Virus record (IMG/VR): IMGVR_UViG_3300010149_000008
Source of the DNA: a virus
Taxonomy: Duplodnaviria; Caudoviricetes
DNA: 64,000 nucleotides
Reading direction: 5' to 3' (one strand)
The notes beneath the pieces are model-generated. The model did no database searches. It was not told the origin of the DNA and was given only the letters and a program-made list of their open reading frames with translations. This document shows positions 28,046-44,730 of this stretch, piece by piece (the stretch's first letter is position 1; each line of letters begins with the position of its first letter). The position numbers and the translations under genes are program-made.

Positions 28046-28476
28046 TGGCAATATCACATATACCAAGATCTGTAGGACATAACTTTGCTCCAGAATACCA
28101 AATTAGTGCTGTTCCTTATATGAGATCTTTAACAGTTGGTAATACTTTAGTTGATGAAGAAAATGACATAAGATCATTTTCATTTCCAAAAATAACTCAG
28201 TGGCTAAGTTTTAAAACATTGGCAGGGGTGACTGTAACAGTTTATTTCTGTAAAGAAGATGCTGTAAGCCTATCAAACGGTTTGGTAGTTGCAGCTGAAA
28301 CGACACTTCCTTTACATTTAAGATGTACTAAGCTATATTTTAATAATCGAGCAGTTGATGCAGATCCAAACCCAGGAGACGCAGGTCTAGCTATTCAAGT
28401 AAGAGCTGGTTTAACAACAATTGATGCATCTGAGTTTAACAATGTAGTAGAAACATTTTTAGAGGCTAATAACTAA
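28045..28476 (+). CDS. Hypothetical virion protein (start at TAATG overlap 28045)
   Basis: MAISHIPRSVGHNFAPEYQISAVPY; beta-rich; head operon context. Confidence 0.6.
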   Translation: MAISHIPRSVGHNFAPEYQISAVPYMRSLTVGNTLVDEENDIRSFSFPKITQWLSFKTLAGVTVTVYFCKEDAVSLSNGLVVAAETTLPLHLRCTKLYFNNRAVDADPNPGDAGLAIQVRAGLTTIDASEFNNVVETFLEANN

Positions 28477-28919
28477 TGGCAAAAGTAAGTAAAAGTTTAT
28501 TAAAAGAGATTGTTAAAGAGTGCTTAGTTGAGATTCTTGCTGAGGGCTTAACAGGTGGTGACACCGAGGCTTTAACAGAAAGCGTGCAAAAAGTAAAGCC
28601 TGTTAGGCGTGCTAGCAGTAAAGATAGAATTATGAAAAATATTCTTCCTCCTAAGCAAAAAGTTGTTAATGAAGACTTTGAAAAAAATATGAAAAGTGTT
28701 ATTTCAAATACAACAAAAGATCCTGTAATGGCAGCACTTTTAGCAGACACTGCTCAAACAACATTACAAGAGCAAAATACTGCTGATAGTGGAAATAGAT
28801 TTGCAGCGCGTCCAACAGACAGTGCTAGCAGAGCGGTGGCAGAAAGTGACCCTTCAGAATTGTTTGGAGGAGCAGCTGCAAATTGGGCACAGTTAGCTTT
28901 TTCTGATAGTATGAAGTAA
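28476..28919 (+). CDS. Hypothetical protein with N-terminal LKEIVKE...LAE leader
   Basis: MAKVSKSLLKEIVKECLVEILAEG. Confidence 0.65.
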   Translation: MAKVSKSLLKEIVKECLVEILAEGLTGGDTEALTESVQKVKPVRRASSKDRIMKNILPPKQKVVNEDFEKNMKSVISNTTKDPVMAALLADTAQTTLQEQNTADSGNRFAARPTDSASRAVAESDPSELFGGAAANWAQLAFSDSMK

Positions 28920-28956
28920 ATTATTAATTAAGACTATAAGTTTAACTGACAAGCAT

Positions 28957-28965
28957 ATATTTATA
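28957..28965 (+). promoter_or_regulatory. Putative late-promoter motif (ATATTTATA)
   Basis: 39 nt upstream of ATG 28996; overlaps a T4-type TATAAATA at 28962-28969. Confidence 0.45.
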
Positions 28966-28995
28966 AATACAATATAAAATATATGGAGTTATATT

Positions 28996-29274
28996 ATGGC
29001 TAGAAGAAAGAAGCTGACACCACGCGTATTGCGTAGAATTATTGCTGAAGAAAGCGCAAAATTAAATGAGACTTTAGAGATGGGACTCAAACACCCATCA
29101 GAGGCTCCTAAGCGCACAAAGGAAGTTGATGCTCACAAGTATGCAGACTCATTAGAGTCATGTATGGATTATTATAAAATGTGTTGCATTAAAGAAGAAA
29201 AAGTTTTAAAGCATCTTAGAGTAATTCAAGAGGCAAAGAGACGTCTTAAAAAGAAGATGATTCGCAAACTTTAA
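28996..29274 (+). CDS. Small basic protein with LRRIIAEE...LNE leader
   Basis: MARRKKLTPRVLRRIIAEESAKLNE; GGAG RBS. Confidence 0.65.
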   Translation: MARRKKLTPRVLRRIIAEESAKLNETLEMGLKHPSEAPKRTKEVDAHKYADSLESCMDYYKMCCIKEEKVLKHLRVIQEAKRRLKKKMIRKL

Positions 29275-29318
29275 TTTGTCATATTTAAATAATGAAAGTT
29301 TATCAATAGGAGTATCTC

Positions 29319-29990
29319 ATGGCTAAAGGTGCAAACGGAACAATAGATCTAGCAAGCTTTGAACAATTAAGAGTTCAAAGACTTTCAACTAGTGCAAGAA
29401 ACTTAGAACATTCTGGTGGAAAATCTTTTGGCATTGCAACCGATAGACTTGACAGTATATTTACGTCAAGCCCACTTTTATCTTCAAATAGAGTAGCAGA
29501 TATAGAAGGTTCTAGAGATCCTGACAAAATTCAAGTTTTAGACGGCGACATTTATAAAATGTATGCTAATGTTGTTGACGGTGATAATAGCATAAATGGA
29601 TTTGGCTTTGAAGGAACTGATACAGTTAATTTAAATTATAAACACCCACAAAATCCTTTTTATATTCAAAGTTCTAACAGCGTTGATTTTTCTTTATTAA
29701 CTACAGGTGCTATGCAAACAGATTCAGAAGGAAATATTGCGCATTACGCGGGATCACCAGATTTAATACCTAATAATCTAGATAGCCCAGAAACTGAAAT
29801 TGGAAATACAACGCCTATATTTGAAACATCTGATGGCACTAATATACCGCATAGAAGAGAAAATTTATTTGGTTCTACAGATGCAAGTTATGCTAGCATT
29901 GTTGATAACGAGCAAGGGCTAGGATTTAGTGGTAATCCTGATACTATAGATACTATAGGCAAATATTTTAATAAAAAGTTTAACAACTAA
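29319..29990 (+). CDS. Hypothetical head-region protein
   Basis: AGGAG RBS; weak similarity by eye to 30003. Confidence 0.65.
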   Translation: MAKGANGTIDLASFEQLRVQRLSTSARNLEHSGGKSFGIATDRLDSIFTSSPLLSSNRVADIEGSRDPDKIQVLDGDIYKMYANVVDGDNSINGFGFEGTDTVNLNYKHPQNPFYIQSSNSVDFSLLTTGAMQTDSEGNIAHYAGSPDLIPNNLDSPETEIGNTTPIFETSDGTNIPHRRENLFGSTDASYASIVDNEQGLGFSGNPDTIDTIGKYFNKKFNN

Positions 29991-30002
29991 AGGAAAATTC
30001 TC

Positions 30003-30767
30003 ATGGCAATAAACATTCCTATTAGACAAACATCAAAAAAATATGGTTTTATTACAGATAATGCTAGGGTTCATGGCAATTCAAGCCTTGAGAATGAGTC
30101 ATATGGCGCAGCAAATTTTGGTGAAAAAGGTTTAGGTAATCATACTAGTCTAAAATCTATTTTTAATCATCCTAATAGTATAATAAACGGAGGAAATGGC
30201 AGCGAAGACAAAGACATGATTATAGCACCTGCTTTTTTACAAGGAAGAAATGACCTTTCCGGAAAATCATTAGGAGATGAAATTGCAGCTGCATTAGAGA
30301 TTATAGAAAGAAAAATAAGCGAAAGAGAAACAACATTAGCTGCTCAAACTCCACCTGGCGACAGAGATGCAGATACTGTATTACAAAAACTTTTGCAAGA
30401 CGAGTCGACGCTTAGTGGAATTATTAACAACGAAACAAGCGACCCTGCAGCACTATCAGCTTTGCTAGTTTCTTCTGAATTTGAATACAATCCAGACTTT
30501 CCATTAAGCAATGTAAATTTTGGTTATGGCGCAATAACTACTGAAACTTCTCGTGCTAAAGACTTACACAGTAGAACAACTGCTGCACCTCGTTCACCTA
30601 ATGTAAACTTTCCTTCTTTAAATTCATCACTCAATAACAATGAAGCCACGGCTAACGCTAATACAGACATACAAGGTCTAGACGGTCAAGGTGGTTTTGG
30701 ATCCTCTACATCATCAAACTTTAGCACTTCAACTATCATTACAGCAATTATAAATAGATATATTTAA
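30003..30767 (+). CDS. Hypothetical head-region protein
   Basis: AAGGA RBS; possible paralogue of 29319. Confidence 0.65.
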   Translation: MAINIPIRQTSKKYGFITDNARVHGNSSLENESYGAANFGEKGLGNHTSLKSIFNHPNSIINGGNGSEDKDMIIAPAFLQGRNDLSGKSLGDEIAAALEIIERKISERETTLAAQTPPGDRDADTVLQKLLQDESTLSGIINNETSDPAALSALLVSSEFEYNPDFPLSNVNFGYGAITTETSRAKDLHSRTTAAPRSPNVNFPSLNSSLNNNEATANANTDIQGLDGQGGFGSSTSSNFSTSTIITAIINRYI

Positions 30768-30779
30768 TAAAGGTATGTT

Positions 30780-31589
30780 ATGCCGGGTTTAACAACAAAT
30801 CCTAATTTAGGTAGAGGTCAAGGATACTACACGCGTAATGATCTCGGTTATGGAAAGACCGACAGTGGCAGTGGAGTTGGAGGTGGTCTAGGATCACCTT
30901 GGGCAGTTTCAGGCAATGCTGGAATATATAAAGAAAAGTCTGAGTACGAAAAAGAGTTAGACAAAGATAGATTTGAGCAAGACAAAGAAGATGACTGTGA
31001 TATAGAGGAGTTTGAATTAGATGTTAAACTTAAACAAAAATCTTTTACATCTAATAGTAAAGACGTATCAGACTTCGGAGTAAAATCCGGAACTGATCCT
31101 TATTCTTTTAACGGTCTTGCTAACACATCTCAGTATCTAGGTGCTGGTTATGATAGAGGAGAAAGTGTCCTTAAAGAATTCATAAGAGAAGCTTTGCAAG
31201 AAGAGATGTTAAGAGAAATAACTTCGATGTCTGTTAGAGTTATGGTTAAAGGAACAGTTGGTGACACTTACAAGAAAAGTAAAGCAAACGTATCAAATAC
31301 AAATCAAATGTCTCCAGGCGATCCATCTATAAAGCAAAGAGGGTATGATAACAATAATAGAAAAGCAAGAACACCTGATAAATGGCCATATTCTATACCT
31401 GACGAGCCAACAGCTTCAGGAACTAAAAGAATGAATTTCCTAGACGATGACATATCTGATGAGTTTGATTGGGAAAATGATAGTTATACAACTGGAAAAT
31501 ATTTGTATGATACTACTAAGCAAGAATACGTTGACGAAAAAAATCTTAAAAATCATATTAAAAAAACGAAATTTAATTTAAATAGATAA
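30780..31589 (+). CDS. Hypothetical protein, Gly-rich N-terminus, internal LKEFIRE motif
   Basis: ...VLKEFIREALQEEMLRE... Confidence 0.6.
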   Translation: MPGLTTNPNLGRGQGYYTRNDLGYGKTDSGSGVGGGLGSPWAVSGNAGIYKEKSEYEKELDKDRFEQDKEDDCDIEEFELDVKLKQKSFTSNSKDVSDFGVKSGTDPYSFNGLANTSQYLGAGYDRGESVLKEFIREALQEEMLREITSMSVRVMVKGTVGDTYKKSKANVSNTNQMSPGDPSIKQRGYDNNNRKARTPDKWPYSIPDEPTASGTKRMNFLDDDISDEFDWENDSYTTGKYLYDTTKQEYVDEKNLKNHIKKTKFNLNR

Positions 31590-31634
31590 TTTCGTCATAT
31601 TTATTGATATATATTAATAGAAAAATTATTAAAT

Positions 31635-33389
31635 GTGAGTAATATAATGGCGAACAATTTATATGAAGAAGCAATTAATGCTGCTGAACAAATTAAAGCA
31701 GCTGCTGAGAATAAAGTTAAGCAACAGTTAGTTGAAGCAATGTCTCCAAAAATTAAAGATCTTATTGAAAGGTCTTTGATGGGCGAAGAAATTGACGAGA
31801 TGAGCGATGCTGCACCTATTCAAGCATCTGATGAAAATCAAGATGTTGTTGACAAAAGGGTTGTCGACGACAAAAAAGAAGACAGCAAAAAAGAAGACAG
31901 CAAAAAAGAAAAAGTTGATGGTGAAGAAGAAGTAAAAGAAAGTGACGGCACAGAAGAGTGTGGTACTATGGAAGATGACAAAAGTGAATCTTATAAATCT
32001 TCCAGTGTTAACGAAGTAGAAATTTCAGCATCATCAGCGAAAATATTAAACAGGATGATTTCTAAAAAGAGAATGAAAGAAGCTGCTTCAAATAAATTAA
32101 GTAAAATTAGTGAAAGTACTAGGTCGCTAAAAAAAGCTATTTTAATTGCTGAAAGCTCAAATAAAAGTAAAAAATTTAGTAAAAAATTCGTACAAGCGTA
32201 TAAGACTTTGTTGAATGAGCTTAAAAATATTGGCAATAGCGATATAATTAAATCAGATAAAACATTATTAAGAGAATATTTAAAAATATCTAAGGAGTTA
32301 AAGAATATGTCTACAAGACGCAGATCGAGAAAAAACTATCTTAACGAAAGTCTAGAAGACCTTCTAGAAATGAACATCTTCGAGGATGAAGATGAAGATG
32401 AAGAATTAGATGATGAAAAAAGCGAAGTCGAAGCCGAAGACGACGACGAAGATGCTGATCTTGAATTAGATCTAGACGACGAAGGCGAAGACGACGACGA
32501 AGGTGGAGAAGAATTAGATCTAGACGATGACGTAGACGATGACGATTATAGCTCTCTCATGTCAGAGCCTCTAGAAGACATACTTAAGTCAGCACTTAAA
32601 GGTATGGGAGAAGGCGATGATGATCTAGACTTAGAAGTTGCTGAAGAAGGTGTTGACGAAGTCTATGAAATGGACGAGCTAGACGAAATGGACGAGCTAG
32701 ACGAAATGGAAGAAGGACCCGGATGTGATGAAGATGATCAACAAGAAATGCATGCTGAGTCTAGACGCCGCGGAAAAGATCTCTTTTTAGAGATCGATGA
32801 AAATATGCTTAAAAAAGAAATTACTAAAATGAGAAGACTTCGTGAAGGCGAAGCATCAGACATGGCATCACACTTTGGTGGTGGCAGTTTGGACAAGGAA
32901 ATGTTCGTTGATGTAGACGACGGTGATCTTAATGTACATGCAGGTGTTTTAGGCCGCGAGGATGTACCGATGCCAAAGGTTGAAGCAGCACTCCGAAAGA
33001 CAGTACGCACAAATCGTATGTTAGAGAGCAAGATTCGACAATATAAAAATGCGGTTCGTGGAATGAAGACGCAATTAACTGAGATGAACCTGTTTAACGC
33101 TAAGCTTCTATACGCTAACAAATTGATGCAAAATAGAGATCTCTCTATGAAACAACAGCGTCACATTGTTGAGTCACTAGATGAAGCAGGTACTTTAAAC
33201 GAGGCGAAACTCTTGTTCGAGAGTCTCTCTAAGTCTTTGAGTAAACCTTCCAGAAGAAGCGGCAAAAATCTTTCAGAGGGTGCTAACAGAAGAACTCTTT
33301 CTTCAGCATCACGTTCTACAAAGAGTGCTCAAACACTCAAAGAGAACGTTGCTCTAGATCGATGGGCAACTTTAGCTGGAATTAAGTAA
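31635..33389 (+). CDS. Prohead scaffold/core protein (T4 gp22-like); start probably ATG 31647
   Basis: Immediately upstream of MCP; MANNLYEEAI start, long acidic tract, C-terminal coiled coil NLFNAKLLYANKL...LDRWATLAGI. Confidence 0.75.
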   Translation: MSNIMANNLYEEAINAAEQIKAAAENKVKQQLVEAMSPKIKDLIERSLMGEEIDEMSDAAPIQASDENQDVVDKRVVDDKKEDSKKEDSKKEKVDGEEEVKESDGTEECGTMEDDKSESYKSSSVNEVEISASSAKILNRMISKKRMKEAASNKLSKISESTRSLKKAILIAESSNKSKKFSKKFVQAYKTLLNELKNIGNSDIIKSDKTLLREYLKISKELKNMSTRRRSRKNYLNESLEDLLEMNIFEDEDEDEELDDEKSEVEAEDDDEDADLELDLDDEGEDDDEGGEELDLDDDVDDDDYSSLMSEPLEDILKSALKGMGEGDDDLDLEVAEEGVDEVYEMDELDEMDELDEMEEGPGCDEDDQQEMHAESRRRGKDLFLEIDENMLKKEITKMRRLREGEASDMASHFGGGSLDKEMFVDVDDGDLNVHAGVLGREDVPMPKVEAALRKTVRTNRMLESKIRQYKNAVRGMKTQLTEMNLFNAKLLYANKLMQNRDLSMKQQRHIVESLDEAGTLNEAKLLFESLSKSLSKPSRRSGKNLSEGANRRTLSSASRSTKSAQTLKENVALDRWATLAGIK

Positions 33390-33439
33390 TTAACCTTTAA
33401 AACACAGAATTTATATTAAGAAAGAAGGATAAAACAAAT

Positions 33440-35455
33440 ATGAGTTTTACACTTAAAACATTAACAGAAGGTATTAGAGACCGCCACGTAGGCCAGCAAA
33501 ATAAGCGCCTCGTTGAGAAATGGTCTCGCACTGGGCTCCTTAGAGGCATGGACGACGTAAACCGTGAGAACATGGCAACAATGCTTGAGAACCAGGCAGC
33601 ACAAGTTCTTCGCGAGAGCAACACAATGAGCAGCGGTGAGGTTGGTGGTTTCACTAACATCGCATTCCCAATCGTTCGTCGTGTTTTCGGTGGTCTTATT
33701 GCTAACGAGCTAGTTTCAATCCAACCAATGAGTTTACCATCAGGTCTTCTCTTCTACCTTGATTATACATACGGTGGTGATAGCGGTGGATATGGAAAAG
33801 GTGAGTCAATCTACGGTGGCCCAGCAGGCAAGGCAATCCAAAGTGGTGCTCTTGCTTCTGGCGGTCAATATGATCTAGTAGGTAGCGGCTTTTCTAGAAA
33901 ACCAAAAAGACTTTTAGTTTGTGACGGTGGTAATGAAGCACGTGCTGCTAATGCTGTGTTGGCTGATGATCGTGATGAGGTTGTTGCAAATATTAATGAT
34001 TTAGCAACTTTATTAGTTGACCAAAACCCAGCTTTTGTTGGTGCTCCTGCTGACGGTTCAAATGCTTTTGCAGCGTTTGGTACAAATAGTCAAGTAATTA
34101 AAATTGATCAAGCTGAGCATTTAAAGCTAATCCAGTTTGACTCACAGCTAGTTGATAGAATTACTGCTGTAGCTGATGGTGGTTTAGGCGAAAGATACGC
34201 ATTTATGGCACTTCTTTTAAGTGGTATGAGTAGCGTAGATAAGGCAATGGCAAAAGATATCGTTCTTCTTGGAGCATTTGACGACGGTGACGGTACAGAA
34301 GCACTCTCAGCAGTTCTTCCAGATGCAGTTCAAGCAGGACCTGCGCACAACGTGAGAAGACTCAATCAATTAGGAACTTTTGCAGGTGGAGTATTTACAC
34401 CTGATTCAATTGGCGGGACACACGTACTTATGGTTGTTCACTTAGGTGATAAAGATAGTACTGCGCATATATCAGGACAAATTGCTGGAAATAATGCGGC
34501 TGATAACTCTGTTGACGCGCTTACTCTTACTTTCGTGAGAGAGGACACAGTTGATCACCTTGATTCTGCAGGTGCAGCAACATTTGGTTCTGTAACTGGC
34601 GCTCCTGCATTTGAAGGTGACGGATCAGGTGGCACAGCAGATGCTTCTGATGGCACTGCGAATCTTGATATTCCAGAGATTGATATCAAGATTGAGTCAA
34701 TTCCTGTAACTGCTCAAACACGTAAGTTAAGAGCTCGTTGGAGCCCAGAGCTTGCGCAAGACCTCAACGCGTACCACTCAATGGACGCAGAGGTTGAGCT
34801 TACTCAGATCCTTTCAGAGCAAATTGCACTTGAGATTGACCGTGAGATCCTTGGTGATCTTCTTACTGGTGCTCAAGGCGCTAACTTCTTCTGGAGCCGT
34901 TCTCCAGGTAAGTTTGTTAACAAGCGTACTGGTAGTGAGATTGCTCGTACTTCAACTCTTAACCCTGGACCAGCTTTCACTGGTACAGTTCGTGAGTGGT
35001 ATGAGACTTTGACCGAGACAGTTATTGACGTAGCTAATGAGATTCACCGTAAGACTCTACGTGGTTCTGCTAACTTCATCGTGGTTTCACCTGACGTTGC
35101 AACAATCCTTGAGGCTTCAGTTCTTTATCGTCCTTCATATAGCATTGATGGTGACGGCCAAGTTGGTGCTCCTTTCACAATGGGTGCTGAGAAGGTTGGT
35201 ACACTTTCAAATCGTTTCACAGTTTATAAAGATCCTTACTTCCCACGCAACAAGATCCTTGTTGGTTATAAGGGTGGTTCTTATCTCGAGACTGGTTTCG
35301 TTTATGCTCCATATGTACCACTCATCGTTACACCGACTATCTTCCAGCCTGACGATTTCACCCCGAGAAAGGGTGTTATGACTCGTTACGGTAAGAAGAT
35401 GGTACGTGCGGACTTCTATGGTACAGTAACATGCCTCGATATGAACATTATCTAA
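33440..35455 (+). CDS. gp23: Major capsid protein (T4 gp23-like) with large central insertion
   Basis: PIVRRVF, VSIQPMSLPSGLLFYLD, TRKLRARWSPELAQDLNAYH, LEIDREI, YAPYVPL, GVMTRYG; strong codon bias. Confidence 0.95.
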   Translation: MSFTLKTLTEGIRDRHVGQQNKRLVEKWSRTGLLRGMDDVNRENMATMLENQAAQVLRESNTMSSGEVGGFTNIAFPIVRRVFGGLIANELVSIQPMSLPSGLLFYLDYTYGGDSGGYGKGESIYGGPAGKAIQSGALASGGQYDLVGSGFSRKPKRLLVCDGGNEARAANAVLADDRDEVVANINDLATLLVDQNPAFVGAPADGSNAFAAFGTNSQVIKIDQAEHLKLIQFDSQLVDRITAVADGGLGERYAFMALLLSGMSSVDKAMAKDIVLLGAFDDGDGTEALSAVLPDAVQAGPAHNVRRLNQLGTFAGGVFTPDSIGGTHVLMVVHLGDKDSTAHISGQIAGNNAADNSVDALTLTFVREDTVDHLDSAGAATFGSVTGAPAFEGDGSGGTADASDGTANLDIPEIDIKIESIPVTAQTRKLRARWSPELAQDLNAYHSMDAEVELTQILSEQIALEIDREILGDLLTGAQGANFFWSRSPGKFVNKRTGSEIARTSTLNPGPAFTGTVREWYETLTETVIDVANEIHRKTLRGSANFIVVSPDVATILEASVLYRPSYSIDGDGQVGAPFTMGAEKVGTLSNRFTVYKDPYFPRNKILVGYKGGSYLETGFVYAPYVPLIVTPTIFQPDDFTPRKGVMTRYGKKMVRADFYGTVTCLDMNII

Positions 35456-35510
35456 GATAATTAGTAAAGCATAAACCAGATTTATTCTGGTAACTCTAGT
35501 GATATCAATT

Positions 35511-35615: not shown

Positions 35616-36782
35616 ATGTTTAAAAAAAGAGATACAAAAATATTATTAGAAAACTGGAGAAGGTTTTTAAATGGTGAAGTATTTGAAGATAAAAAAGTTA
35701 ACGAAATTTATCAAACTGTTTATGCAGGAGGCGGGGGATACGTAACAACTCAGACAGATATACCTAGAAACGATTATTTGATTTATGACGATTATTCTAT
35801 GATATTAGGAAGAGGCATGAACGAAAGTGCTGGAGGAGAAATTCAGATGCAAGCACTTACAAAAAAATTCGTAAAAGAAAATGGAAGCCCTGAACTTGAC
35901 ATTGTTGACTTTTTTTATGAAGTTATTGAATCTTCTTTTGGCAGGTCTAGTGGTGAGCAAAGAAAAAAAGAATTAGAGCTTATTAAGCAAAGAGCTGAAT
36001 TTTATAAAACTGTTTTTTCTCCTTCTATGTACACAGACGAAAAAACTATTATCTTTTTACCTTTGGCACATTTCGGTGACAGGGATTCAACGACTGAGTC
36101 ACAAAGACCTTACATAAAAAAAGACACATCGGGTAAACACGTAGACTTTGACATTTCAAATGAAGAACTTTCAGGAAAAAAAGATTTTAAACAAATAGAA
36201 ATGGATAATGTTAGTGATAATTTTGGTAAAGAAAGTGTACATGAATATTTAACGCTTAAAGATAATATTAACTGGTCAATGCATGATCTAGGACATGCTA
36301 TGATTGAGAGTGTATTTGATAACGATTCTATTATAGACTTTGAAGAGCATCACCCACAAGAAAAAGACAGTCATGAAGCATTTGACTTTATTTTCAAAGA
36401 CTTATCAGCAAGAGGAAAAAGAGAAATAGATTCACTAGAGAACGATGTTAAAAGAAGTGATGCTTTGCATATAAAAGAACTTTTAAATGCATTAACTCCA
36501 GGTGTTGGAGAAGGTGACTTAGAATTTTCTTTGTTTGCAAAACTTATAAAAAACCCTACAGACAAAGGCGTTCAAGAATTAGTTGATTTAATAACTAAGA
36601 ACATAAGAAACAATTTAAATCAGATACACCCTAAAATTATTAAAAGATTTAATATAGATAGCGAAATTTCTTCTGGACTTTCTACTTTAAAGAAATTTTT
36701 AGAAAAAGTATTACATGTTCATAAAGAAGTAGGAAATAGAGTTCATGATGTTTTTAAAATAATTTATGTACCTAAGAATTAA
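35616..36782 (+). CDS. Hypothetical protein with LLENWRRFL leader and HDLGH motif
   Basis: MFKKRDTKILLENWRRFLNGE; NWSMHDLGHAMIE. Confidence 0.65.
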   Translation: MFKKRDTKILLENWRRFLNGEVFEDKKVNEIYQTVYAGGGGYVTTQTDIPRNDYLIYDDYSMILGRGMNESAGGEIQMQALTKKFVKENGSPELDIVDFFYEVIESSFGRSSGEQRKKELELIKQRAEFYKTVFSPSMYTDEKTIIFLPLAHFGDRDSTTESQRPYIKKDTSGKHVDFDISNEELSGKKDFKQIEMDNVSDNFGKESVHEYLTLKDNINWSMHDLGHAMIESVFDNDSIIDFEEHHPQEKDSHEAFDFIFKDLSARGKREIDSLENDVKRSDALHIKELLNALTPGVGEGDLEFSLFAKLIKNPTDKGVQELVDLITKNIRNNLNQIHPKIIKRFNIDSEISSGLSTLKKFLEKVLHVHKEVGNRVHDVFKIIYVPKN

Positions 36783-36840: not shown

Positions 36841-37218
36841 ATGTTAAGCAACAGAAAAAATACTAGTGTAGTTGTTTCATCTTGGAGAGACTATTTAAGC
36901 GGAAAGCCTGCTAGAAAAAATTTAAACGAAGCAGTTCACAATGCAGACGGAGATAGAGAAGAATGTTTTAAAGCACTAATTTCAGACTTATTAGATCGTG
37001 GTTGGGATGATGATAGAGTTGATGTACTAGTTATTGATGTATTGAAAAAATGTAATATTTCTGATGAAGAGCTAGAGATGATTGCTTACGAACGACCTAG
37101 CAGTCATGAGCTTAACAACGACAAAGATATGGCAGAATATAATGATGATGATTACGACCCAGAGTATAATCCATTAGGCACAGAAGAAGATTCACTTTAT
37201 AATCCAGGCGATCGATAA
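36841..37218 (+). CDS. Small acidic hypothetical protein with WRDYL...LNE leader
   Basis: AAGGA RBS; leader resembles that of 35616. Confidence 0.6.
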   Translation: MLSNRKNTSVVVSSWRDYLSGKPARKNLNEAVHNADGDREECFKALISDLLDRGWDDDRVDVLVIDVLKKCNISDEELEMIAYERPSSHELNNDKDMAEYNDDDYDPEYNPLGTEEDSLYNPGDR

Positions 37219-37252
37219 TTAATACTTTTTATTAGACTTACTAGGATTTAAA

Positions 37253-37618: not shown

Positions 37619-38145
37619 TGCCTTTTATGAGACAATATAACAGTCAAAAAAAAGTTTCTAAAAGAATTAATACTAGTCCTTCTAAAAGTGATATCGATAC
37701 TGCTAAAAAGCTAGGAATTGATTTGGGTAAAAGCTGGAATGCGTATTCTAAAGAAGTAAGAGTTCACATTTACATAAAAAATATGGATGAAATGGTTAGG
37801 TTTTACAACAAAATACTAGAATTTCCTGTCGTAAGATATTGGAGGTATTCTGATGGTGATGGCACGCAAATAGACTTAGGTGGCAACGTTATAGAATTAT
37901 TTTCTAAAAGCAGTAGAAACTATTCAAATAAAAACTTTCATGGAAACGTTTCACTTTCAGTAAAAGTAAAAGATGTAAACAAGTTATATGAAAAATTTAG
38001 CAAGAAAAATATAAAGCTAGGTGAGTTAATAGAAAATCCTTGGGGTGATGCATCTTTTCACGTTGTTGATCCTGAAGGCAATCGTTTAGCTTTTTTTAGT
38101 CCGACGATTAAAAAAGAAAAATATTACAAAGTTAAAAAAAGCTAA
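37618..38145 (+). CDS. VOC/glyoxalase-bleomycin-resistance family protein
   Basis: VRFYNKILEF...VKVKDVNKLYEK...PWGDASFHVVDPEGNRLAF. Confidence 0.8.
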   Translation: MPFMRQYNSQKKVSKRINTSPSKSDIDTAKKLGIDLGKSWNAYSKEVRVHIYIKNMDEMVRFYNKILEFPVVRYWRYSDGDGTQIDLGGNVIELFSKSSRNYSNKNFHGNVSLSVKVKDVNKLYEKFSKKNIKLGELIENPWGDASFHVVDPEGNRLAFFSPTIKKEKYYKVKKS

Positions 38146-38293
38146 TATAATTATTTAGTCAGTCCTATCTATGCGTTTTATACATTATGTGAAGAACAAG
38201 GGTGTCAGCGTATAAAAAGTGTAGTAATGCCAATTGACTTGCTGGATTTTCATCCTTTCTTCAGCGAGAAGGAAACGTAGGAGGGCAATTTTT

Positions 38294-38548
38294 ATGAAGT
38301 GGTATATGTACGTTATTCTCTGTTTTGACAATTCTTTTTATTGCGGTATTACCACAAATCTTGAAAAAAGATTAAAACAGCACAACGGTGCGATCAAAGG
38401 CGGGGCAAAATACACAAGAAGCCGGCGTCCTTGCAGATATATATACAAAGAAGATGCTCAAAATAGAAGTGATGCATCAAAAAAAGAAGCAACTTTTAAA
38501 AAATTAAATAGAAAACAAAAAGAAAAGTATATTAACTTTATTTCCTGA
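38294..38548 (+). CDS. Stand-alone GIY-YIG nuclease (YhbQ/UPF0213-like)
   Basis: MKWYMYVILCFDNSFYCGITTNLEKRLKQHN...GAKYTR...E; AGGAGG RBS supports ATG 38294. Confidence 0.85.
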   Translation: MKWYMYVILCFDNSFYCGITTNLEKRLKQHNGAIKGGAKYTRSRRPCRYIYKEDAQNRSDASKKEATFKKLNRKQKEKYINFIS

Positions 38549-39644
38549 ACTCTGGACTAATATAGTCAACGCCCAGAGCAGAAAAAACTTGCTTTTCATT
38601 TTTAGGCATTAAAAACTTTTGCTTATTCTTGTCATAAAGATAATCAAAAGAATAAATAACATCTCTTTTAAAACCTTCATATAACATCTTTACATTGTGC
38701 GCAGCGCTACCAGTCCAGTAACATCTTCTTGTTGGAATAGAAGTCGGACTACACATAAAGACGTCACATTGCATTCCTTCTTTTACAAACTGAACTATGT
38801 TCTTAAAAGATCTTGTTCTACTTTCAGAAACTATATTTCTTTTTAATGTGTTACCGAATAAAAAGCTATAATTCTCCATAAATCTTTTTTCATCCAGAGG
38901 ATGTCTATTTATTCTGCCGGCATCTTTATGACCTACAATATTAACAATTAGATCTAAGTCGCCTACAATGCTTTTCTTTCTACGAAGAGAGCCAGCATTG
39001 TATATATTTTCAACAATAAAGCCATTTTCTTCTAAAATATTGGTAACTTCTTCTTTAACAATGCCGAATACGTTTTTAGCATATTCGTAATCTTTTTTTT
39101 CGCAGCCTAGAGATGCACCTTCATTTAAGAGACTATTGCGATTATTTAGCTTAGATTCTTTAATTACATGATGAGATCCGTCCCAAAAGCCTTCTAATGC
39201 TTTAAAGTCACAAAGATGAATTGCTTCGTGAATAATGCTTTCTTTTAAAAACCTTATATGACTTTGTAAGTTAAATTTTGTCCAGTCAATTTTTAGCTGA
39301 CCGTTGTCTTCATATAAATGATTTGGTTTATAAACATATCCATTAACAACACGATCACAAATACTCTCACCAATTGTTTTCATCTTATTAATTGCTTTAA
39401 CATCAGAATACTTAAAAAGTTCTAAATCAATACTCTCAGCTAACAGTGAATCAAAGCTATATAGAAAATAGTCATAGTCTTTTACTTGATGAGATCTGTT
39501 TTCCATTAAAGCTTTATGATAGTTGACAATTGAAGCGCTATAATCAAAAACATATCTGTCTTTTTCAACATGATACATTACGTTTTCTAATGCCAACTCT
39601 TCTATGCCTTTTACTAACATTTTATGCTGTTGTTTAGTTAGCAT
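38538..39644 (-). CDS. polX: DNA polymerase X family catalytic domain with about 175-aa N-terminal extension
   Basis: AGSLRR, GDLD, CDVF, YWTGS, EKQVFSALGVDYISPEFR. Confidence 0.8.
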   Translation of the reverse strand: MLTKQQHKMLVKGIEELALENVMYHVEKDRYVFDYSASIVNYHKALMENRSHQVKDYDYFLYSFDSLLAESIDLELFKYSDVKAINKMKTIGESICDRVVNGYVYKPNHLYEDNGQLKIDWTKFNLQSHIRFLKESIIHEAIHLCDFKALEGFWDGSHHVIKESKLNNRNSLLNEGASLGCEKKDYEYAKNVFGIVKEEVTNILEENGFIVENIYNAGSLRRKKSIVGDLDLIVNIVGHKDAGRINRHPLDEKRFMENYSFLFGNTLKRNIVSESRTRSFKNIVQFVKEGMQCDVFMCSPTSIPTRRCYWTGSAAHNVKMLYEGFKRDVIYSFDYLYDKNKQKFLMPKNEKQVFSALGVDYISPEFRK

Positions 39645-39654
39645 TTTAAGCTCC

Positions 39655-40443
39655 TTATAAAAGAACCTTGTTCATAGCTCTTTTAGACTCTTTAATAAAC
39701 CCATTGTTAAATTCCATAAAATATTCTTCAATAGAATAAATCTTTTTAGAGTCACGACCTTTTACACCAATTTCGCCTAACAACTCAGCATCAATGTCTT
39801 GTTGACTTAATAAGTCATAGTCCATTAAAATCTTTGTGACTTCTTTAGCTCTTTGCTGTCCGTTTTTTCTAGCTGACTTTTGAAAAGCTAGGTTTAAATC
39901 ACCTAATAAATTGCCACTATTACTTTTATCACCTTGAGCAGTAAAAATATTTCCACTCGGCACGTGCTCAATATCACCTTCAGTACCTCTAGTTACTTGT
40001 GAGTCAACAATTAAGAAAAAATCTTCTTTTGGCATGCCTCCGCCTTGCATGTTTGCATCTACAGCGTCGCCTACATCTTGTTGACCTGGGCTGTATGTTC
40101 CATGCCATATATTACCATTAGGATCAACCCATCCTACACCTTGAACATATGAACCACCAGGAGCAGCTAAGCCTTGTTGATTTCTATTGCTGTTGTAAGA
40201 TGATTGTGAAGATGAAGGGTCTTCAAATCCCATTTGTCTTCTCTCTTGTCTTTGTCCTGCCTGTCTATATAGCTCTTCGTCTGCAGCAGAGTGTCCAGGG
40301 AAAGAAGGACCTCGCGATGATCTTCCTCCTCTTACACCACCTCTAGCGTCACCTGCCATTCCATATCTGGTGTCACCCGGAGTAGAAACTTCTTCTATTG
40401 TTTCTCTTATAAGTCTTCGAAGATTTTTAATGCTAATTTTCAT
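39655..40443 (-). CDS. Hypothetical Gly/Arg/Gln-rich protein with LRRLIRETIEE leader
   Basis: MKISIKNLRRLIRETIEE; RGG-type low-complexity segment. Confidence 0.65.
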   Translation of the reverse strand: MKISIKNLRRLIRETIEEVSTPGDTRYGMAGDARGGVRGGRSSRGPSFPGHSAADEELYRQAGQRQERRQMGFEDPSSSQSSYNSNRNQQGLAAPGGSYVQGVGWVDPNGNIWHGTYSPGQQDVGDAVDANMQGGGMPKEDFFLIVDSQVTRGTEGDIEHVPSGNIFTAQGDKSNSGNLLGDLNLAFQKSARKNGQQRAKEVTKILMDYDLLSQQDIDAELLGEIGVKGRDSKKIYSIEEYFMEFNNGFIKESKRAMNKVLL

Positions 40444-40447
40444 TTAA

Positions 40448-41236
40448 CTAGTCCTTTTCTAGATTATCTTTTATTAAATATTCTCTAATTATGTCTTTTT
40501 TTGGTAGCACTACACATTTATTTGATTTTTCTTTTAAATAAATTCTTTTATTTTTTAGCGGATCTAAACTGTTTACAAACACTGGGTTTGATGTATATAG
40601 AATTTGTGCAGGTCTAAATATGCATTTGTCAACTCCTTCACAATGCTTTTCAAACCAAGGTTTAAGTGTTTCACCATCATACGCTTCGCTTAACATAAAC
40701 CAAAGATGTGCCTTAATTTTATTACTATTAAAAAACATGCCATTTGAAAACTGGCAAACGTAACTTGAATTGTGGAATGATTCATGAAGCGTTTTTACAA
40801 ACATTTCAACAGCTAGTTCTCTATGACTTTTTATCTGTAAGTTGCAATTTAGAGGTTTTTTAAAGTCATCAATGTCTAGCATAATCCATTTTTTTGGATG
40901 ATCAACTATTGTAGGCTTATGACAAATACCTTCTTCAATTTTCTCTTTAATTAGTCTTCTAATCTTATAACCTCGTGTCTTTAAGTTATAAGCATTTTCT
41001 GTTATTTTACCTCTAACAAAACAACAATTTCTTTTCCAAGCGTATTTTTCTACAAGCGAATTTAAGTCGTATATGTCTAAAATTGCTACTTCGTTAAAGC
41101 TATAGTACTTAGAAAAATTTTTATCTATAAGCTCATATTCTTGATTTTGATTTAAATACCAAGACTTGTGTTGTTGTGTATTACATTCTAGAATAGTAAC
41201 TAGATTATTGTTCTTTTTTTTCATTAATTTTGCCAT
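40448..41236 (-). CDS. Putative primase-polymerase (AEP superfamily) domain protein
   Basis: IMLDIDD (DxD), QFSNG...KAHLWFML (His), DKCIFRPAQILYTSNPVF. Confidence 0.55.
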   Translation of the reverse strand: MAKLMKKKNNNLVTILECNTQQHKSWYLNQNQEYELIDKNFSKYYSFNEVAILDIYDLNSLVEKYAWKRNCCFVRGKITENAYNLKTRGYKIRRLIKEKIEEGICHKPTIVDHPKKWIMLDIDDFKKPLNCNLQIKSHRELAVEMFVKTLHESFHNSSYVCQFSNGMFFNSNKIKAHLWFMLSEAYDGETLKPWFEKHCEGVDKCIFRPAQILYTSNPVFVNSLDPLKNKRIYLKEKSNKCVVLPKKDIIREYLIKDNLEKD

Positions 41237-41282
41237 ATTGTTTTAAAATAATTATTACACAACATGACAAAATAAACAAATC

Positions 41283-41699
41283 TTACTCTTCTGAACTTTC
41301 TTCACCAGCTTGAGGCTCAACATTATCATCACAATCTTCTGGACATTCTTCTCCTTCACAAGGCTCACAAGCAGGATCTACAGCCGGCTGGGGCTCGTCA
41401 CATCCGTCTTCACCCTGAAACTCAGGCTCACAATCTAATTGGTCTTCACCACCAGATACATCTTGATCACTATTTGTTTCGCCTGCTTCTGAGCCTGCTT
41501 CTGCACCTGCTTCTGCACCTGCTTCTGCACCTGCTTCTGCACCTGCTTCTGCACCTGCTTCTGCACCTGCTTCTGCACCTGCTTCTGACATTCCCATGTC
41601 TGTTTCTTGTGCTTCTTTTTCATCATGATCGTCTTTTTCACAACCACTTACCAATAAAGATAAAGCTAACATTAAAAATAACAATGAGTTCTTGAACAT
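41283..41699 (-). CDS. Acidic lipoprotein with (A/S)EAG repeats
   Basis: Signal peptide ending in lipobox LVSG-C; AGGAG RBS; Cys/Glu-rich C-terminus. Confidence 0.7.
   Translation of the reverse strand: MFKNSLLFLMLALSLLVSGCEKDDHDEKEAQETDMGMSEAGAEAGAEAGAEAGAEAGAEAGAEAGAEAGSEAGETNSDQDVSGGEDQLDCEPEFQGEDGCDEPQPAVDPACEPCEGEECPEDCDDNVEPQAGEESSEE
41482..41589 (-). repeat. 12-nt tandem repeat x9 encoding (A/S)EAG
   Basis: Plus-strand unit CCTGCTTCTGCA, 7 identical copies plus 2 variant flanks. Confidence 0.95.
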
Positions 41700-41778
41700 A
41701 AAAATTCTCCTTTTAATTAACTCAAACTAATAAATATATATTTGTTTGTATTATCTTAAATAAAAGGAAAAATTGTAA

Positions 41779-41973
41779 ATGAATTTTAAATTTTTAAATA
41801 TATTGATGTTGTTTGCTGTATCTTTTTTATTTTCTTTTGGTAAAAAAGAAAAAAAGCCTGCACTTGATGATTACTATATTATAGAAAACAGCAAAGATTT
41901 TCAAAATCTTGTTTATAAAAGCGACTATAAAACTTATCGTGATATTTTGTATACAAATGTAGTTTTTAATTAA
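41779..41973 (+). CDS. Small protein with N-terminal hydrophobic segment
   Basis: MNFKFLNILMLFAVSFLFSFG; AAGGA RBS. Confidence 0.45.
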   Translation: MNFKFLNILMLFAVSFLFSFGKKEKKPALDDYYIIENSKDFQNLVYKSDYKTYRDILYTNVVFN

Positions 41974-42014
41974 ATTAATATTTATAATCATAAAACAAAG
42001 AAAAGAGTTAACTT

Positions 42015-42380
42015 ATGTCAATAAACAATCCTGAAAAATATATTGAGCTAGCAATTAAATACAAGACACATACAATGGTTTTGCTTTCTTTTTTGCTTCT
42101 TGTAATTGTATTTTTTATCGGTAGATCAACTGTTTCAATTCCACCTAAAGAGATTGTGTGTAAGAGTGAAATTACAACTATAGAAAATCTTTTTACAAAA
42201 ATAGAAGAATGTCAAAGTAAATCAACTAGTAATCTTAGAGATCAAATGGACAAAGATGAAGCTGAATGTAAAAAAAGAATTAAAGCAGGAATAATAGAAA
42301 ATAGAGGAACAGTAGAAATACTTTCATGTAGCGAAGCAAAAGCAATAATGCCTCAGTGCAAGAGAAGAAGAGAATGGTAG
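42015..42380 (+). CDS. Membrane-anchored Cys-containing coiled-coil protein (i-spanin-like candidate)
   Basis: Single N-terminal TM (MVLLSFLLLVIVFFIG), helical C-terminal domain with several Cys. Confidence 0.45.
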   Translation: MSINNPEKYIELAIKYKTHTMVLLSFLLLVIVFFIGRSTVSIPPKEIVCKSEITTIENLFTKIEECQSKSTSNLRDQMDKDEAECKKRIKAGIIENRGTVEILSCSEAKAIMPQCKRRREW

Positions 42381-42895
42381 ACATGATAAACAAAATAACA
42401 ACAATAATTTTAATTGTACTTCTTTTAATTCCGGCAAGTTTAATAGCCCAGCCGTTAAAAGAAGTAAATGAAGATTGGGATCCAATATCACAAAGTATTG
42501 AATGGGAACCTGTAGAAATGAAAATAAAGCTAGGAGATGCTGAAGTTAAAGTCTGGCTTCTTCATTCAATGGTTCCAGCGCCAATATCTGGTTATATGTT
42601 AAAAAAACCAGACTTTGCTGATATGAAAAGAATATTAGACAATTTAGACAAAGAAGTAGAGAGAGTAAAGCAAAAAGAAAGGTCTTTTTGCGATAAACTT
42701 TTAGTAGAAAAAGATGTTTTTTGTAGAAGTTTAAATAAAGATCTTATAAAACAAATAGACAGCCAGAAAATTGTAATTGTAAGCAGAGATGACAAAATAA
42801 AAAGTCTAAACAGCGAGCTGTTTTGGACAAAAATAATTTCTGGGACTGTCGTTTTAGGCTTAAGCGCATTTTCAATATACTCATTGGCAAAATAA
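42374..42895 (+). CDS. Secreted/membrane protein with signal peptide, coiled coil and C-terminal TM
   Basis: MINKITTIILIVLLLIPASLIAQ...WTKIISGTVVLGLSAFSIYSLAK; overlaps the previous gene. Confidence 0.55.
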   Translation: MVDMINKITTIILIVLLLIPASLIAQPLKEVNEDWDPISQSIEWEPVEMKIKLGDAEVKVWLLHSMVPAPISGYMLKKPDFADMKRILDNLDKEVERVKQKERSFCDKLLVEKDVFCRSLNKDLIKQIDSQKIVIVSRDDKIKSLNSELFWTKIISGTVVLGLSAFSIYSLAK

Positions 42896-42942
42896 TTGAG
42901 CTTATTTAGTATAATTAATTTTATAGTTTTAGGAGAATATTA

Positions 42943-43212
42943 ATGGAACCAAATTTAGTTCTTTCTTTAGGTAGCATTATTGGTTTAATGGGTCTTTTTT
43001 GGACATGGCATAAAGAACAAAAACATACAAGTAGTACAATTTCAGTATTGCAAAACAAAGTTGAAAATCTAGAAGAAAAAATAAAAGTTCAAGATGAAGC
43101 TATTGTAAAAGTGCAAGAAACTTTAATGAAGATGGATCTTAAACTTACTAGAATTGATACTCAGTTATCATTGCTTTTAGAAGAAAAAAAAATACAAAAG
43201 TCTGTAAGTTAG
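42943..43212 (+). CDS. Small N-terminal TM + coiled-coil protein (holin/XhlA-like candidate)
   Basis: LVLSLGSIIGLMGLFWTW followed by heptad repeats; AGGAG RBS. Confidence 0.45.
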   Translation: MEPNLVLSLGSIIGLMGLFWTWHKEQKHTSSTISVLQNKVENLEEKIKVQDEAIVKVQETLMKMDLKLTRIDTQLSLLLEEKKIQKSVS

Positions 43213-43257
43213 CAAATTAAATAATATTTATATTTAAACAATAAAGGAAATAAACAT

Positions 43258-43479
43258 ATGAGAATTACTGAGAATACATTAAGAAAAATGATTATTCAAG
43301 AGATGAGAAACGTTAGAAGACAAAAAAGACTTCAAGAAGGCACAGCTGAAAGGCCAATCGCTGTAACTCCTCAACTTTTAAATAGAATTATTCGCGAAGA
43401 ATACACAAGATTTCAAAGAAGACAAAGACTAACAGAGGCTAAAAGAAGAAGATTAGCAGCTGCTAAAAGAAGAAGATAA
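43258..43479 (+). CDS. Small Arg-rich protein built from two leader-like repeats
   Basis: ITENTLRKMIIQEM...RLQE and VTPQLLNRIIREE...RLTE, then AKRRRLAAAKRRR. Confidence 0.7.
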   Translation: MRITENTLRKMIIQEMRNVRRQKRLQEGTAERPIAVTPQLLNRIIREEYTRFQRRQRLTEAKRRRLAAAKRRR

Positions 43480-43485
43480 AAAAAG

Positions 43486-43514
43486 TTGTACAAATTGCAT
43501 ATTGTGTTTATTAT
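43486..43514 (+). promoter_or_regulatory. Putative sigma70-type promoter
   Basis: TTGTAC-N17-TATTAT upstream of ATG 43573. Confidence 0.45.
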
Positions 43515-43572
43515 ATAGACACGTTTAATCAAGCGATAAATATCGAAAACAAAATCGAAAGGACACGAATTT

Positions 43573-43884
43573 ATGCAATTATCACCTGAACAAGTACAAT
43601 CTATCAATATTCTACTTTCTGCAGTACAAGTAGCGCAGAGACGAGGTGCTTATTCACTGCAAGATGCATCAACATTGCAAGAAGCTATTGATAAGCTTGT
43701 ACCTCGAGAGGAGCAAGAGAGACAAGCAGCAGAGGCGGCCGCTGCCGACGCAAGCCCTGAGGAGGCTGAGGCATCATTAAGCATGGGAGAAACAGATGAC
43801 TGTTGCGATGACGATGATGCTGACTGTTGCGATGACGATGATGCTGACTGTTGCGATGACCAGCCGGCTGCAGATTCTGAGTAA
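43573..43884 (+). CDS. Small acidic protein with Cys-Cys/Asp repeats
   Basis: N-terminal helical domain (VQVAQRRGAYSLQDA), C-terminal DCCDDDDA repeats. Confidence 0.7.
   Translation: MQLSPEQVQSINILLSAVQVAQRRGAYSLQDASTLQEAIDKLVPREEQERQAAEAAAADASPEEAEASLSMGETDDCCDDDDADCCDDDDADCCDDQPAADSE
43798..43860 (+). repeat. 24-nt tandem repeat x2.6 (GACTGTTGCGATGACGATGATGCT)
   Basis: Exact copies at 43798 and 43822, partial copy at 43846. Confidence 0.95.
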
Positions 43885-43941
43885 TATATTCTTAGCTTTG
43901 ATAGTTAATTAAATTAATAGTTAATTAAAAAGCGAGAATAT

Positions 43942-44730
43942 ATGCCATTAATAAAAAATTACATTGCAAATTATCTGTTAAGAGAAAACATACAAAAAAA
44001 CCAACAAGTATCAATGATGTTTATAAACAGTCTGCTTGTTAAAGATGAAGACGGTTATCTCTTAGAAGAAGCTTACATAGAAGAAGAACGAGAACTCAAT
44101 CAACTTATAGATACTGGAGTGTGTGAAGATACTTTTTTTCAAAAAGTGTATGAAAGCATATTAAGTTCTGGATTTAAATACTTTGCAAAAGGATCTGGAA
44201 GAATTGTATTTACGCACAATCAGGCACCAAACTTGATTTTTAAGTTAGTTATTCCTGGTGAAGAGCTAGATGGAAATATTGCTGAAACTAGAAAAGAAAA
44301 AGAAATGATGCTTAGACATCCTCATCTTTTTGGAGAGCTATATAATGTTAAAGGGAATATTCCTAGTTTGTTTAATAATTCTATAGACTATTTTATTATA
44401 GTCGAAAGATTAATACCCTTGTTTACAACAAACTTTGTGCCATTTTCTGATGATAAAGTTTTTAATAATTTAAAATCCCAGTTTGGATATAGTGGATCTT
44501 TGTCTGAATTTAAAACATTTCTTAAAGAAAAGCTTATAAAGTATTATGAGTTAGCGTTTGGACAGGAGACTGAAGACTATGCACATATAAAAGTGCCTGC
44601 TAGTCCTCCTGACATGCTTGATAATTTTTGTGAAGAAGTAATTAAATTTAGCAAAGAAGTTAAGCCAGATAACGTTGGTTTAAAGGTTATTGGAAGTAAT
44701 AGATATAAATTTGTAATGTTAGATGTGTAA
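43942..44730 (+). CDS. Protein kinase-like fold protein (atypical or pseudokinase)
   Basis: KGSGRIVF, LIFKL, IIVERL, KEVKPDNVG, VMLDV-stop. Confidence 0.55.
   Translation: MPLIKNYIANYLLRENIQKNQQVSMMFINSLLVKDEDGYLLEEAYIEEERELNQLIDTGVCEDTFFQKVYESILSSGFKYFAKGSGRIVFTHNQAPNLIFKLVIPGEELDGNIAETRKEKEMMLRHPHLFGELYNVKGNIPSLFNNSIDYFIIVERLIPLFTTNFVPFSDDKVFNNLKSQFGYSGSLSEFKTFLKEKLIKYYELAFGQETEDYAHIKVPASPPDMLDNFCEEVIKFSKEVKPDNVGLKVIGSNRYKFVMLDV

Follow-up and report, generated by a model that had tools for sequence, protein, structure and literature searches.

Why would proteins that are otherwise unrelated start with almost the same short peptide, and why around the head genes of a phage? The question is raised by a window of 64,000 nucleotides (nt) from the IMG/VR virus record IMGVR_UViG_3300010149_000008. 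Between positions 28476 and 44730, several open reading frames (ORFs) begin with, or contain, a similar amphipathic motif ending in (L/I)-x-E, which a sequence-only reading had taken for a single capsid-targeting leader on packaged and ejected proteins. Each of the strings quoted in that reading is present in the ORF to which it had been assigned. Together they do not form one motif, as had been assumed, but at least two classes of leader plus a number of unrelated helices. The leaders themselves are real and N-terminal, are under selection at the level of the peptide, are common to unrelated protein bodies, co-occur with a prohead protease and carry a cleavage-site motif. Our reading from sequence, to which we give a probability of about 0.6, is that these are portable propeptides at the N-terminus (leader 1, and probably leader 2 as well), which address proteins to the prohead core and are removed by a gp21-type protease.

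Leader 1 has the consensus M-[RK]-[ILV]-[TS]-x3-L-[RK]-[RK]-h-[IV]-x-E-E..h-L-x-E (h, hydrophobic) and is found on four proteins of the window, those at 28476, 28996, 40443 (minus strand) and, twice, 43258. Across the whole viral record of 133 kb, a hidden Markov model (HMM) of this leader finds exactly five copies, with scores of 13-24 bits: in 28476 (at residue 3), 28996 (residue 6), 39655-40443 on the minus strand (residue 2) and 43258 (residues 2 and 36). The next best match reaches 2.9 bits and the maximum in 20 shuffled proteomes was 7.6 bits, so that the enrichment over shuffled sequence expected of a genuine N-terminal motif is borne out for leader 1. Regular expressions give comparable results. 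The seven-residue pattern L[KRN][KRE][ILMFV][IV]x[EQ] matches six times in the record as opposed to 0.5 times in shuffles, each time within 28476-43479, while a 13-residue pattern, extended upstream by [LIVMT][ST]xxxL.., has five matches, four of them at residues 3-7. In 80 related loci this longer pattern was found 37 times (0.27 expected), with 32 of the 37 matches in the first 20 residues. When the HMM was built solely from the leaders of relatives of the 28996 protein (family B), it recovered 28996 itself and both copies in 43258 (15.3 and 10.4 bits). It did not recover 28476 or the 262-residue protein at 39655-40443, which indicates that leader 1 has sub-types.

The leader is also portable. 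With their leaders removed, the carriers of the window bear no mutual resemblance in BLASTP (best E=0.19 in a nine-sequence database), and none has a significant match in Pfam or the PHROGs. A 20-column leader alignment has 28 matches in five whole related contigs, in which runs of consecutive small genes each start with MRITESQLR[KR]I[IV]R: four in L083, three in L084 and more in L085. Likewise, a strict degenerate DNA pattern for M-R-I-T-E-S-Q-L-R-x-I occurs in 21 IMG/VR contigs, with up to six copies in 3 kb. Pooling of all leader-1 proteins yielded 95 unique carriers with bodies in 41 BLAST clusters, a census to which the pattern search, selecting for the leader itself, contributed a part. 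With its HMM copies, bodies unrelated in BLASTP and many body clusters across the clade, the proposal of a portable N-terminal leader on sequence-unrelated proteins is upheld. Leaders within one array differ at many synonymous sites, the 45 nt upstream of them are not alike, and the motif persists in relatives whose genomes are much richer in G+C. Selection therefore acts on the peptide rather than on a DNA cassette or on base composition.

If leader 1 is removed by proteolysis, a cleavage site should lie within or just behind it, and the comparison with head proteins suggests which one. The site of T4 gp23, L-T-E↓A (the arrow marks the cut), aligns with [VL]-L-[RK]-E↓S in the capsid protein of the window and in all 22 relatives shown, which places the predicted maturation site of the capsid protein at V-L-R-E59↓S (nt 33605-33616). 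T4 gp24, which has a short propeptide cleaved by gp21 (PMC5694885), carries a similar L-R-E↓S site in its sequence. Taken together, the gp23 alignment and the gp24 site argue that the (L/I)-x-E specificity has probably been retained. We counted such sites in one representative per body cluster (41 families) and in 1,120 control N-termini. A [LI]-x-E ending at residues 10-32 is present in 40 of the 41 leader families and in 34% of the controls, so that leaders do carry the motif in the expected place; beyond the HMM core, at residues 17-32, the figures are 30 of 41 and 28%. Behind the Glu, at P1', 22 of 40 have A, S, N or G. The second [LI]-x-E implies a full leader of about 20-24 residues, M-[RK]-I-T-E-S-Q-L-R-[KR]-I-[IV]-R-E-E-h-x-x-h-L-x-E, followed by a small residue.

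The enzyme presumed to remove the leaders is encoded at 27443..28045 on the plus strand. This prohead protease of the T4 gp21 type matches phrog_207 (E=3.8e-50) and the T4 gp21 structure 5jbl (E=1e-16). The His of its ELDHP motif and the Ser of ISSRG line up with two T4 positions at which the 5jbl crystal construct has alanine and wild-type T4 has His and Ser. With both residues kept and the order of the head genes preserved, the earlier claim that the genome holds a T4-type protease and head core is well founded. All seven leader-bearing contigs that were checked for a protease or head module encode one. The density of [LI]xE is among the highest of the genome in head-module proteins and in the 73-residue protein at 43258 (14 sites against 6.1 expected at 26607; 5 against 1.1 at 43258). 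This would be expected for core proteins that get chopped up, yet it is a weak statistic and PolX is also rich in such sites.

Two of the leader-1 carriers are conserved members of the head module. Family A (28476..28919, plus strand; 147 residues) has its leader at residues 1-23 (nt 28476-28544; 16.9 bits at residue 3), ending in I-L-A-E↓G, and 36 BLAST homologs in related loci. Family B (28996..29274, plus strand; 92 residues) has a leader of 25 residues (nt 28996-29070; 24 bits) that ends in K-L-N-E↓T. All of its 29-32 orthologs in relatives share KLTPxxL[RK][RK]h[IV]xEE, and its mature part is basic. When the profiles of both families are compared in hhalign, only the leader aligns (columns 2-20, P=0.0057). 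The position of the two proteins in the head module is analogous to that of T4 gp67 and gp68. Given that they are conserved between the protease and scaffold genes across the clade, they are best seen as core proteins; the view that 28476 and 28996 encode injected cargo has to give way to the more likely one of prohead-core components.

The third carrier is the very basic 73-residue protein (43258..43479, plus strand; pI 12), which consists of two leader-1 copies (nt 43258-43302 and 43363-43398; 19.5 and 22.8 bits) and an Arg-rich tail. Its orthologs have two to three copies (L003:11137-11400; L022:18390-18626), the three being in L022. Such a protein could be a cross-linker of the core, a precursor of internal peptides or a DNA-binding internal protein. 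The charge of the mature body is mixed among carriers, being basic only in 43258 and family B.

The fourth carrier, of 262 residues, is encoded on the minus strand (39655..40443). Leader 1 occupies residues 1-18 (nt 40390-40443; 13.2 bits) and offers the sites I-R-E↓T and I-E-E↓V. No other segment is as well conserved as the leader in 16 homologs (37-80% identity), in which L8, I12, T15, I16 and E18 are invariant. An AF2 model has an isolated helix at residues 5-18, a second helix at 53-70 and predicted disorder in two stretches, 18-49 and 70-120, where pLDDT (the model's confidence measure) is below 50. The C-terminal domain starts at about residue 120/121 and has a block pLDDT of roughly 70-90. 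A tag on a linker would be laid out in this way. Foldseek (PDB, AFDB) and VIA-align wide returned no convincing fold match for the model (best E=0.05, Z=3.7), and the ESM Atlas gave no lead. A complex prediction of the scaffold with residues 1-45 of this carrier scored 0.00, both chains being poorly folded. The gene belongs to a conserved minus-strand cassette, between a primase-like gene (40448-41236, phrog_16950) and PolX (38538-39644), and this order is kept in homolog contigs from Tara Oceans samples (L108-L111) down to 37% identity. The region of the cassette (38294-41236) lies mostly on the minus strand, opposite to the surrounding late genes; at its flanks are a small GIY-YIG gene and a gene of the glyoxalase family.

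Leader 2, of the type LLENWRxFL, follows the pattern hh-E-x-W-R-x-[FY]-L with the core W-[RK]-x-[FY]-L, which matches twice in the record where 0.06 matches are expected. Its two carriers, at 35616 and 36841, are the sole pair of the sequence-only reading that also emerged (score 34) when all N-termini were compared by 12-mers without bias. In the protein of 388 residues (35616..36782, plus strand; leader-2 HMM 19.7 bits) it covers residues 1-24 (nt 35616-35687) and is retained in homologs down to 31% identity; Pfam, PHROG and the ESM Atlas gave no lead for this protein. The other carrier is an acidic protein of 125 residues (36841..37218, plus strand; 19.6 bits), in which the leader VVSSWRDYLSG is followed by K-N-L-N-E30↓A (nt 36841-36930). 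A homolog of its body in L006 (139 residues) likewise starts with leader 2. Further N-terminal copies were found in L006, L022 (two) and L046, on proteins encoded just downstream of the capsid gene, and the leader heads at least five unrelated bodies.

Two further observations concern leader 2. In another relative, a protein of 309 residues (L056:13761-14690, minus strand) has the DnaQ-type exonuclease motif FFDTETSGL and a weak leader-2-like N-terminus, EILKEWRKF..LLTE, of 4.5 bits. Moreover, leader 2 (ILLENWRRFLNGE) faintly resembles the LLxxW-type N-terminal motifs of T4 gp23 (ELLNKWKPLLEGE), T4 gp21 (LLIETW) and the protease of the phage itself (KLITEWSAFEY); in the window these motifs lie at 27443-27520 and 33500-33560, and in T4 at the gp21 and gp23 N-termini (L082). 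The likeness is not significant, the leader-2 HMM ranking neither the protease nor the capsid N-termini above noise. Mimicry of the capsid propeptide was considered as a source of the leaders and is kept only as a lead, since an HMM of the first 48 capsid residues of relatives misses them (E of 4 or worse).

The remaining strings of the sequence-only reading fit neither leader. The PolX-family polymerase (38538..39644, minus strand; PF14791, E=2.8e-10) has no leader HMM match and is absent from the N-terminal matches of leader 1. Its ortholog in L008 keeps EELALE, so that the N-region, once listed as a leader, looks like a conserved part of the protein body. At 43942..44730 (plus strand) another protein of 262 residues, earlier described as kinase-like, starts with MPLIKNYIANYLLRE followed by N. 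It is a singleton that matches neither leader HMM and was dropped as a leader carrier; homologs down to 37% identity keep the N-terminus and an L-x-E, and it may represent a third leader type with one instance in the window. Lastly, the motif LKEFIREALQEEMLRE (nt 31170-31217, plus strand) at residues 131-146 of a head-module protein of 269 residues (30780-31589) is internal, as had been noted, and conserved: among four diverged positional orthologs, no other block of this fast-evolving protein is as well conserved (LK-[FY]I[RK]E-[IL]..E). With 0.8 bits in the leader HMM it is no N-terminal leader, and may instead be an internal docking or cleavage segment.

The gene content around the carriers is that of a T4-type head module, as judged from gene order, PHROG matches and alignment: a portal, a protease and a scaffold core are present, as is a gp23-type capsid protein whose predicted maturation site is of the (L/I)-x-E type. 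On the plus strand, gene order and PHROG matches identify the large terminase (22942-24570) and a gp20-type portal (24580-26607). A conserved protein of 278 residues is encoded between portal and protease, and six small or medium ORFs separate the protease from a scaffold-like gene (31647..33389). The acidic scaffold-like protein of 580 residues sits in the gp22 position, directly upstream of the capsid gene; it has 71 homologs in related loci, a net charge of -57 and 22 [LI]xE sites where its composition predicts 11.4, and it matches neither a PHROG nor T4 gp22. The major capsid protein of the gp23 type follows (33440..35455; phrog_138, E=2.4e-74). It is 671 residues long, compared with 521 in T4 and 536 in Flavobacterium phage immuto, and only about half of its length is covered by tblastn, in two segments, so that it may well contain a large inserted domain (roughly 150-250 residues).

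The source is an uncultured marine phage, distantly T4-like, with a viral record of 133,179 bp. The same proteins are found on a contig of 256,231 bp in a separate protein collection; the phage probably counts among the jumbo phages, at about 256 kb, and further leader genes may be present in the rest of the contig, beyond the 133-kb record. By capsid protein the nearest cultured phages are immuto, Microcystis phage Mel-JY01 and Rhodothermus phage RM378 (half of the protein aligned, at 42-47% identity), and capsid proteins at 55-70% identity occur in about 600 IMG/VR contigs. These distant cultured matches and numerous uncultured relatives place the phage in a large uncultured clade of distant T4-like phages.

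Where leader genes lie in these relatives is also informative. They flank the protease gene (L099), follow the capsid gene (L098) or stand in tandem upstream of a gp13-like neck gene (L100, L089), and are always co-oriented with the structural genes. In the window, a variable block (35616-46625) that extends up to the gp13-like neck gene at 46780 is the same slot as that of the relatives' capsid-to-neck leader genes. The octamer ATATTTA[AT] occurs 28-55 nt upstream of 12 genes (13 sites, for example at 28957, 29281, 31597, 36807, 40481 on the minus strand, 43224 and 50179 of the window), where intergenic frequency predicts about 2 sites. These genes, which include those for the sheath, the scaffold, 28996, 36841, 39655 (minus strand) and 43258, belong without exception to the structural half of the record; the replication half has none. 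By its sequence the octamer is a candidate -10 element of a late promoter that resembles the T4 late -10 box TATAAATA, placed at -39 for 28996 and at -34 for both 36841 and 43258.

The variable block also contains genes that do not carry the leaders described here. The adjacent proteins at 44839-45342 (167 residues) and 45365-46294 (309 residues) have near-identical N-termini, MP[VS][VL]EYT[AL][ES]KGL[VI], were the second-best pair in the N-terminal scan, and are probably paralogous structural proteins. Three small proteins have repeats: 46314-46625 with six tandem KKVAEP units; 41283-41699 (minus strand), lipoprotein-like and acidic, with eight AGAE units; and 43573-43884, Cys/Asp-rich and possibly metal-binding, which ends in three CCDDDDAD units.

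How could the leaders work? We infer that the proteins dock to the core, are cleaved, stay in the virion and are ejected, in the following manner. The first 14-24 or so residues would form an amphipathic helix that docks the protein onto the scaffolding core during prohead assembly. The gp21-type protease would then cut after (I/L)-x-E inside the helix or at its end, at the same kind of site as L-R-E59↓S in the capsid protein. The mature body would be retained in the head, while core proteins would instead be degraded and expelled. Families A (28476) and B (28996) would be conserved core components of the head module, and the counterparts of T4 internal proteins would be the 73-residue protein, the 262-residue protein at 39655-40443, the two leader-2 proteins and the tandem-array genes of relatives.

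Several observations weigh against this reading. The leader sequence is not visibly related to the T4 capsid-targeting sequence (CTS), and with the N-termini of T4 gp24, gp67 and gp22 the leaders share only an amphipathic L-x-E character. Families A and B have no detected homology to T4 gp67, gp68 or gp22 in hhalign with single T4 sequences, where probabilities are at most 1.1%. A tblastn search of a cultured phage collection gave no match for family B or for the 262-residue carrier, and the 30-residue leader reached only an E of 3 or worse. The site motif is common in any helical protein (genome-wide 533 [LI]xE versus 443 in shuffles), and several leaders have V at P3 of the core site (I-V-R-E), which is not the T4 consensus. 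To this may be added the partly leader-selected census, and an octamer that is AT-rich in an AT-rich genome, was chosen post hoc and can only be supportive. The weakest case for a capsid address is the 262-residue carrier, whose place on the opposite strand in a cassette with a primase-like gene and PolX could equally mean a role in DNA metabolism; neither of its cassette neighbours has a leader.

An ordinary origin of the strings deserves consideration as well. Amphipathic helices rich in K, E, L and I abound in an AT-rich genome and could have been picked by eye; indeed, the unbiased 12-mer scan leaves most pairs of the sequence-only reading at background, [LI]xE is found everywhere, the PolX N-region is explained in this way and 43942, as a single instance, is inseparable from chance. 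For leaders 1 and 2 a chance origin is nonetheless refuted, and we regard it as extremely improbable: the HMM separates 13-24 bits from a next best of 2.9 and a shuffled maximum of 7.6, the 37 matches in relatives compare with 0.27 expected, the same leader recurs with different codons in relatives richer in G+C, and the relatives-only HMM recovers 28996 and both copies of 43258. Hardly more credible is that a cassette of promoter, ribosome-binding site and 5' coding sequence was spread by recombination while the peptide itself is functionless. T4-type phages do shuffle genes at short conserved boundary sequences, and the leaders do lie at gene starts in tandem arrays; the many synonymous differences within one array, the unlike 45 nt upstream and the survival of the motif at very different G+C content speak against such a cassette.

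More serious are two explanations that accept the peptide as functional. The leader might be an assembly helix and nothing else, all carriers being transient components of the prohead core that are broken down and expelled on maturation like T4 gp22, gp67 and gp68, with no delivery to the host. The best conserved carriers, families A and B, do have their genes between those for the protease and the scaffold in all relatives that were examined, [LI]xE is densest in head-module proteins and the 73-residue protein, and many of the array proteins are small, with neither a fold nor a family that can be recognised. Yet tandem, rapidly diversifying arrays of unrelated bodies are typical of accessory or arms-race genes rather than of essential scaffolds, some carriers are large or folded (388 residues, 341 residues, and 262 residues with a confident C-terminal domain), and a leader-2-like carrier in one relative has a DnaQ-type exonuclease motif; we hold this explanation to be rather unlikely. 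Alternatively, the shared helix could serve outside the capsid, in the binding of a single host or phage target (such as a polymerase, a clamp or DNA), in oligomerisation or as a degron, with the arrays encoding regulators or anti-defence proteins. This would suit the 262-residue carrier, which is locked between the primase-like gene and PolX down to 37% identity and whose family is conserved past the leader into STPGDxRY..GDARGG, and arrays with a constant N-terminus and a variable C-terminus are typical of anti-defence loci too. However, the same leader heads two conserved head-morphogenesis proteins, and the carrier genes cluster within the head module and between the capsid and neck genes, pointing the same way as the late genes. 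A plain binding helix, moreover, would not need the second (L/I)-x-E with a small P1', which is far commoner than in controls. A function outside the capsid thus strikes us as unlikely, though worth keeping in mind.

Returning to the addressing propeptides, a bolder version is conceivable. The clade could use a small code of at least two interchangeable address peptides, leader 1 of the MRITESQLRKIIREE type and leader 2 of the LLENWRxFL type, to load dozens of unrelated proteins for co-injection. The cargo in that case would include the basic leader-repeat protein, the partner of PolX and the primase-like protein in the cassette, and the DnaQ-type exonuclease of a relative, and the leader alone would then be enough to tell from sequence which proteins uncultured phages inject. 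We offer this code, together with its cargo, tentatively, as a possibility more doubtful than probable. If the propeptides do act as addresses, they would provide, from sequence alone, a list of packaged and possibly injected proteins in a widespread group of uncultured marine phages. Such proteins would be candidates for first-line counter-defence and host-takeover functions, and the leader might be used, like the T4 CTS, for loading foreign proteins into capsids.

As a principle this is familiar from T4; the gain is one of breadth and of a defined new motif, not of a new mechanism. In T4, the internal proteins IPI, IPII and IPIII and the Alt protein have N-terminal CTS propeptides of 10-20 residues, join the core and have the propeptide removed by gp21 (PMC5694885, PMC3012670), in work credited to Mullaney and Black (1996) as cited in PMC5694885 and PMC3012670. 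As in T4, a short N-terminal peptide is common to otherwise unrelated proteins, the carriers are variable accessory genes, the leader ends in (L/I)-x-E before a small residue, and a gp21-type protease is encoded along with a T4-type head module of core, scaffold and gp23. Unlike the T4 CTS, the leader described here is about twice as long and bipartite, with a core and a second L-x-E. It comes in at least two classes on dozens of body families instead of a handful, it is also found on two conserved head-module proteins, and it is known from sequence alone. The strings of the motif had no match in the literature searched.

Two other comparisons are instructive. T-even phages have hypervariable loci for internal proteins, in which the CTS is all that the various ORFs have retained (PMC3012670). 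Those loci and the ones described here are alike in their tandem arrays of small genes, with a conserved leader on unrelated bodies and with differences between close relatives; here, however, most arrays are found next to the head module or in the stretch of the late region that separates the capsid gene from the neck gene. In giant phages of the phiKZ type such as SPN3US, many inner-head proteins lose their N-terminal propeptides to a gp21-related protease; most of these propeptides exceed 100 residues, they are cut at A/S-x-E, as established by mass spectrometry, and conserved N-termini on diverged paralogs have been read as CTS-like (PMC5694885, PMC10052503). A gp21-related protease and shared N-termini are thus common to both systems, whereas the leaders of the present phage and its relatives are compact peptides of 14-24 residues with (L/I)-x-E sites, predicted from sequence.

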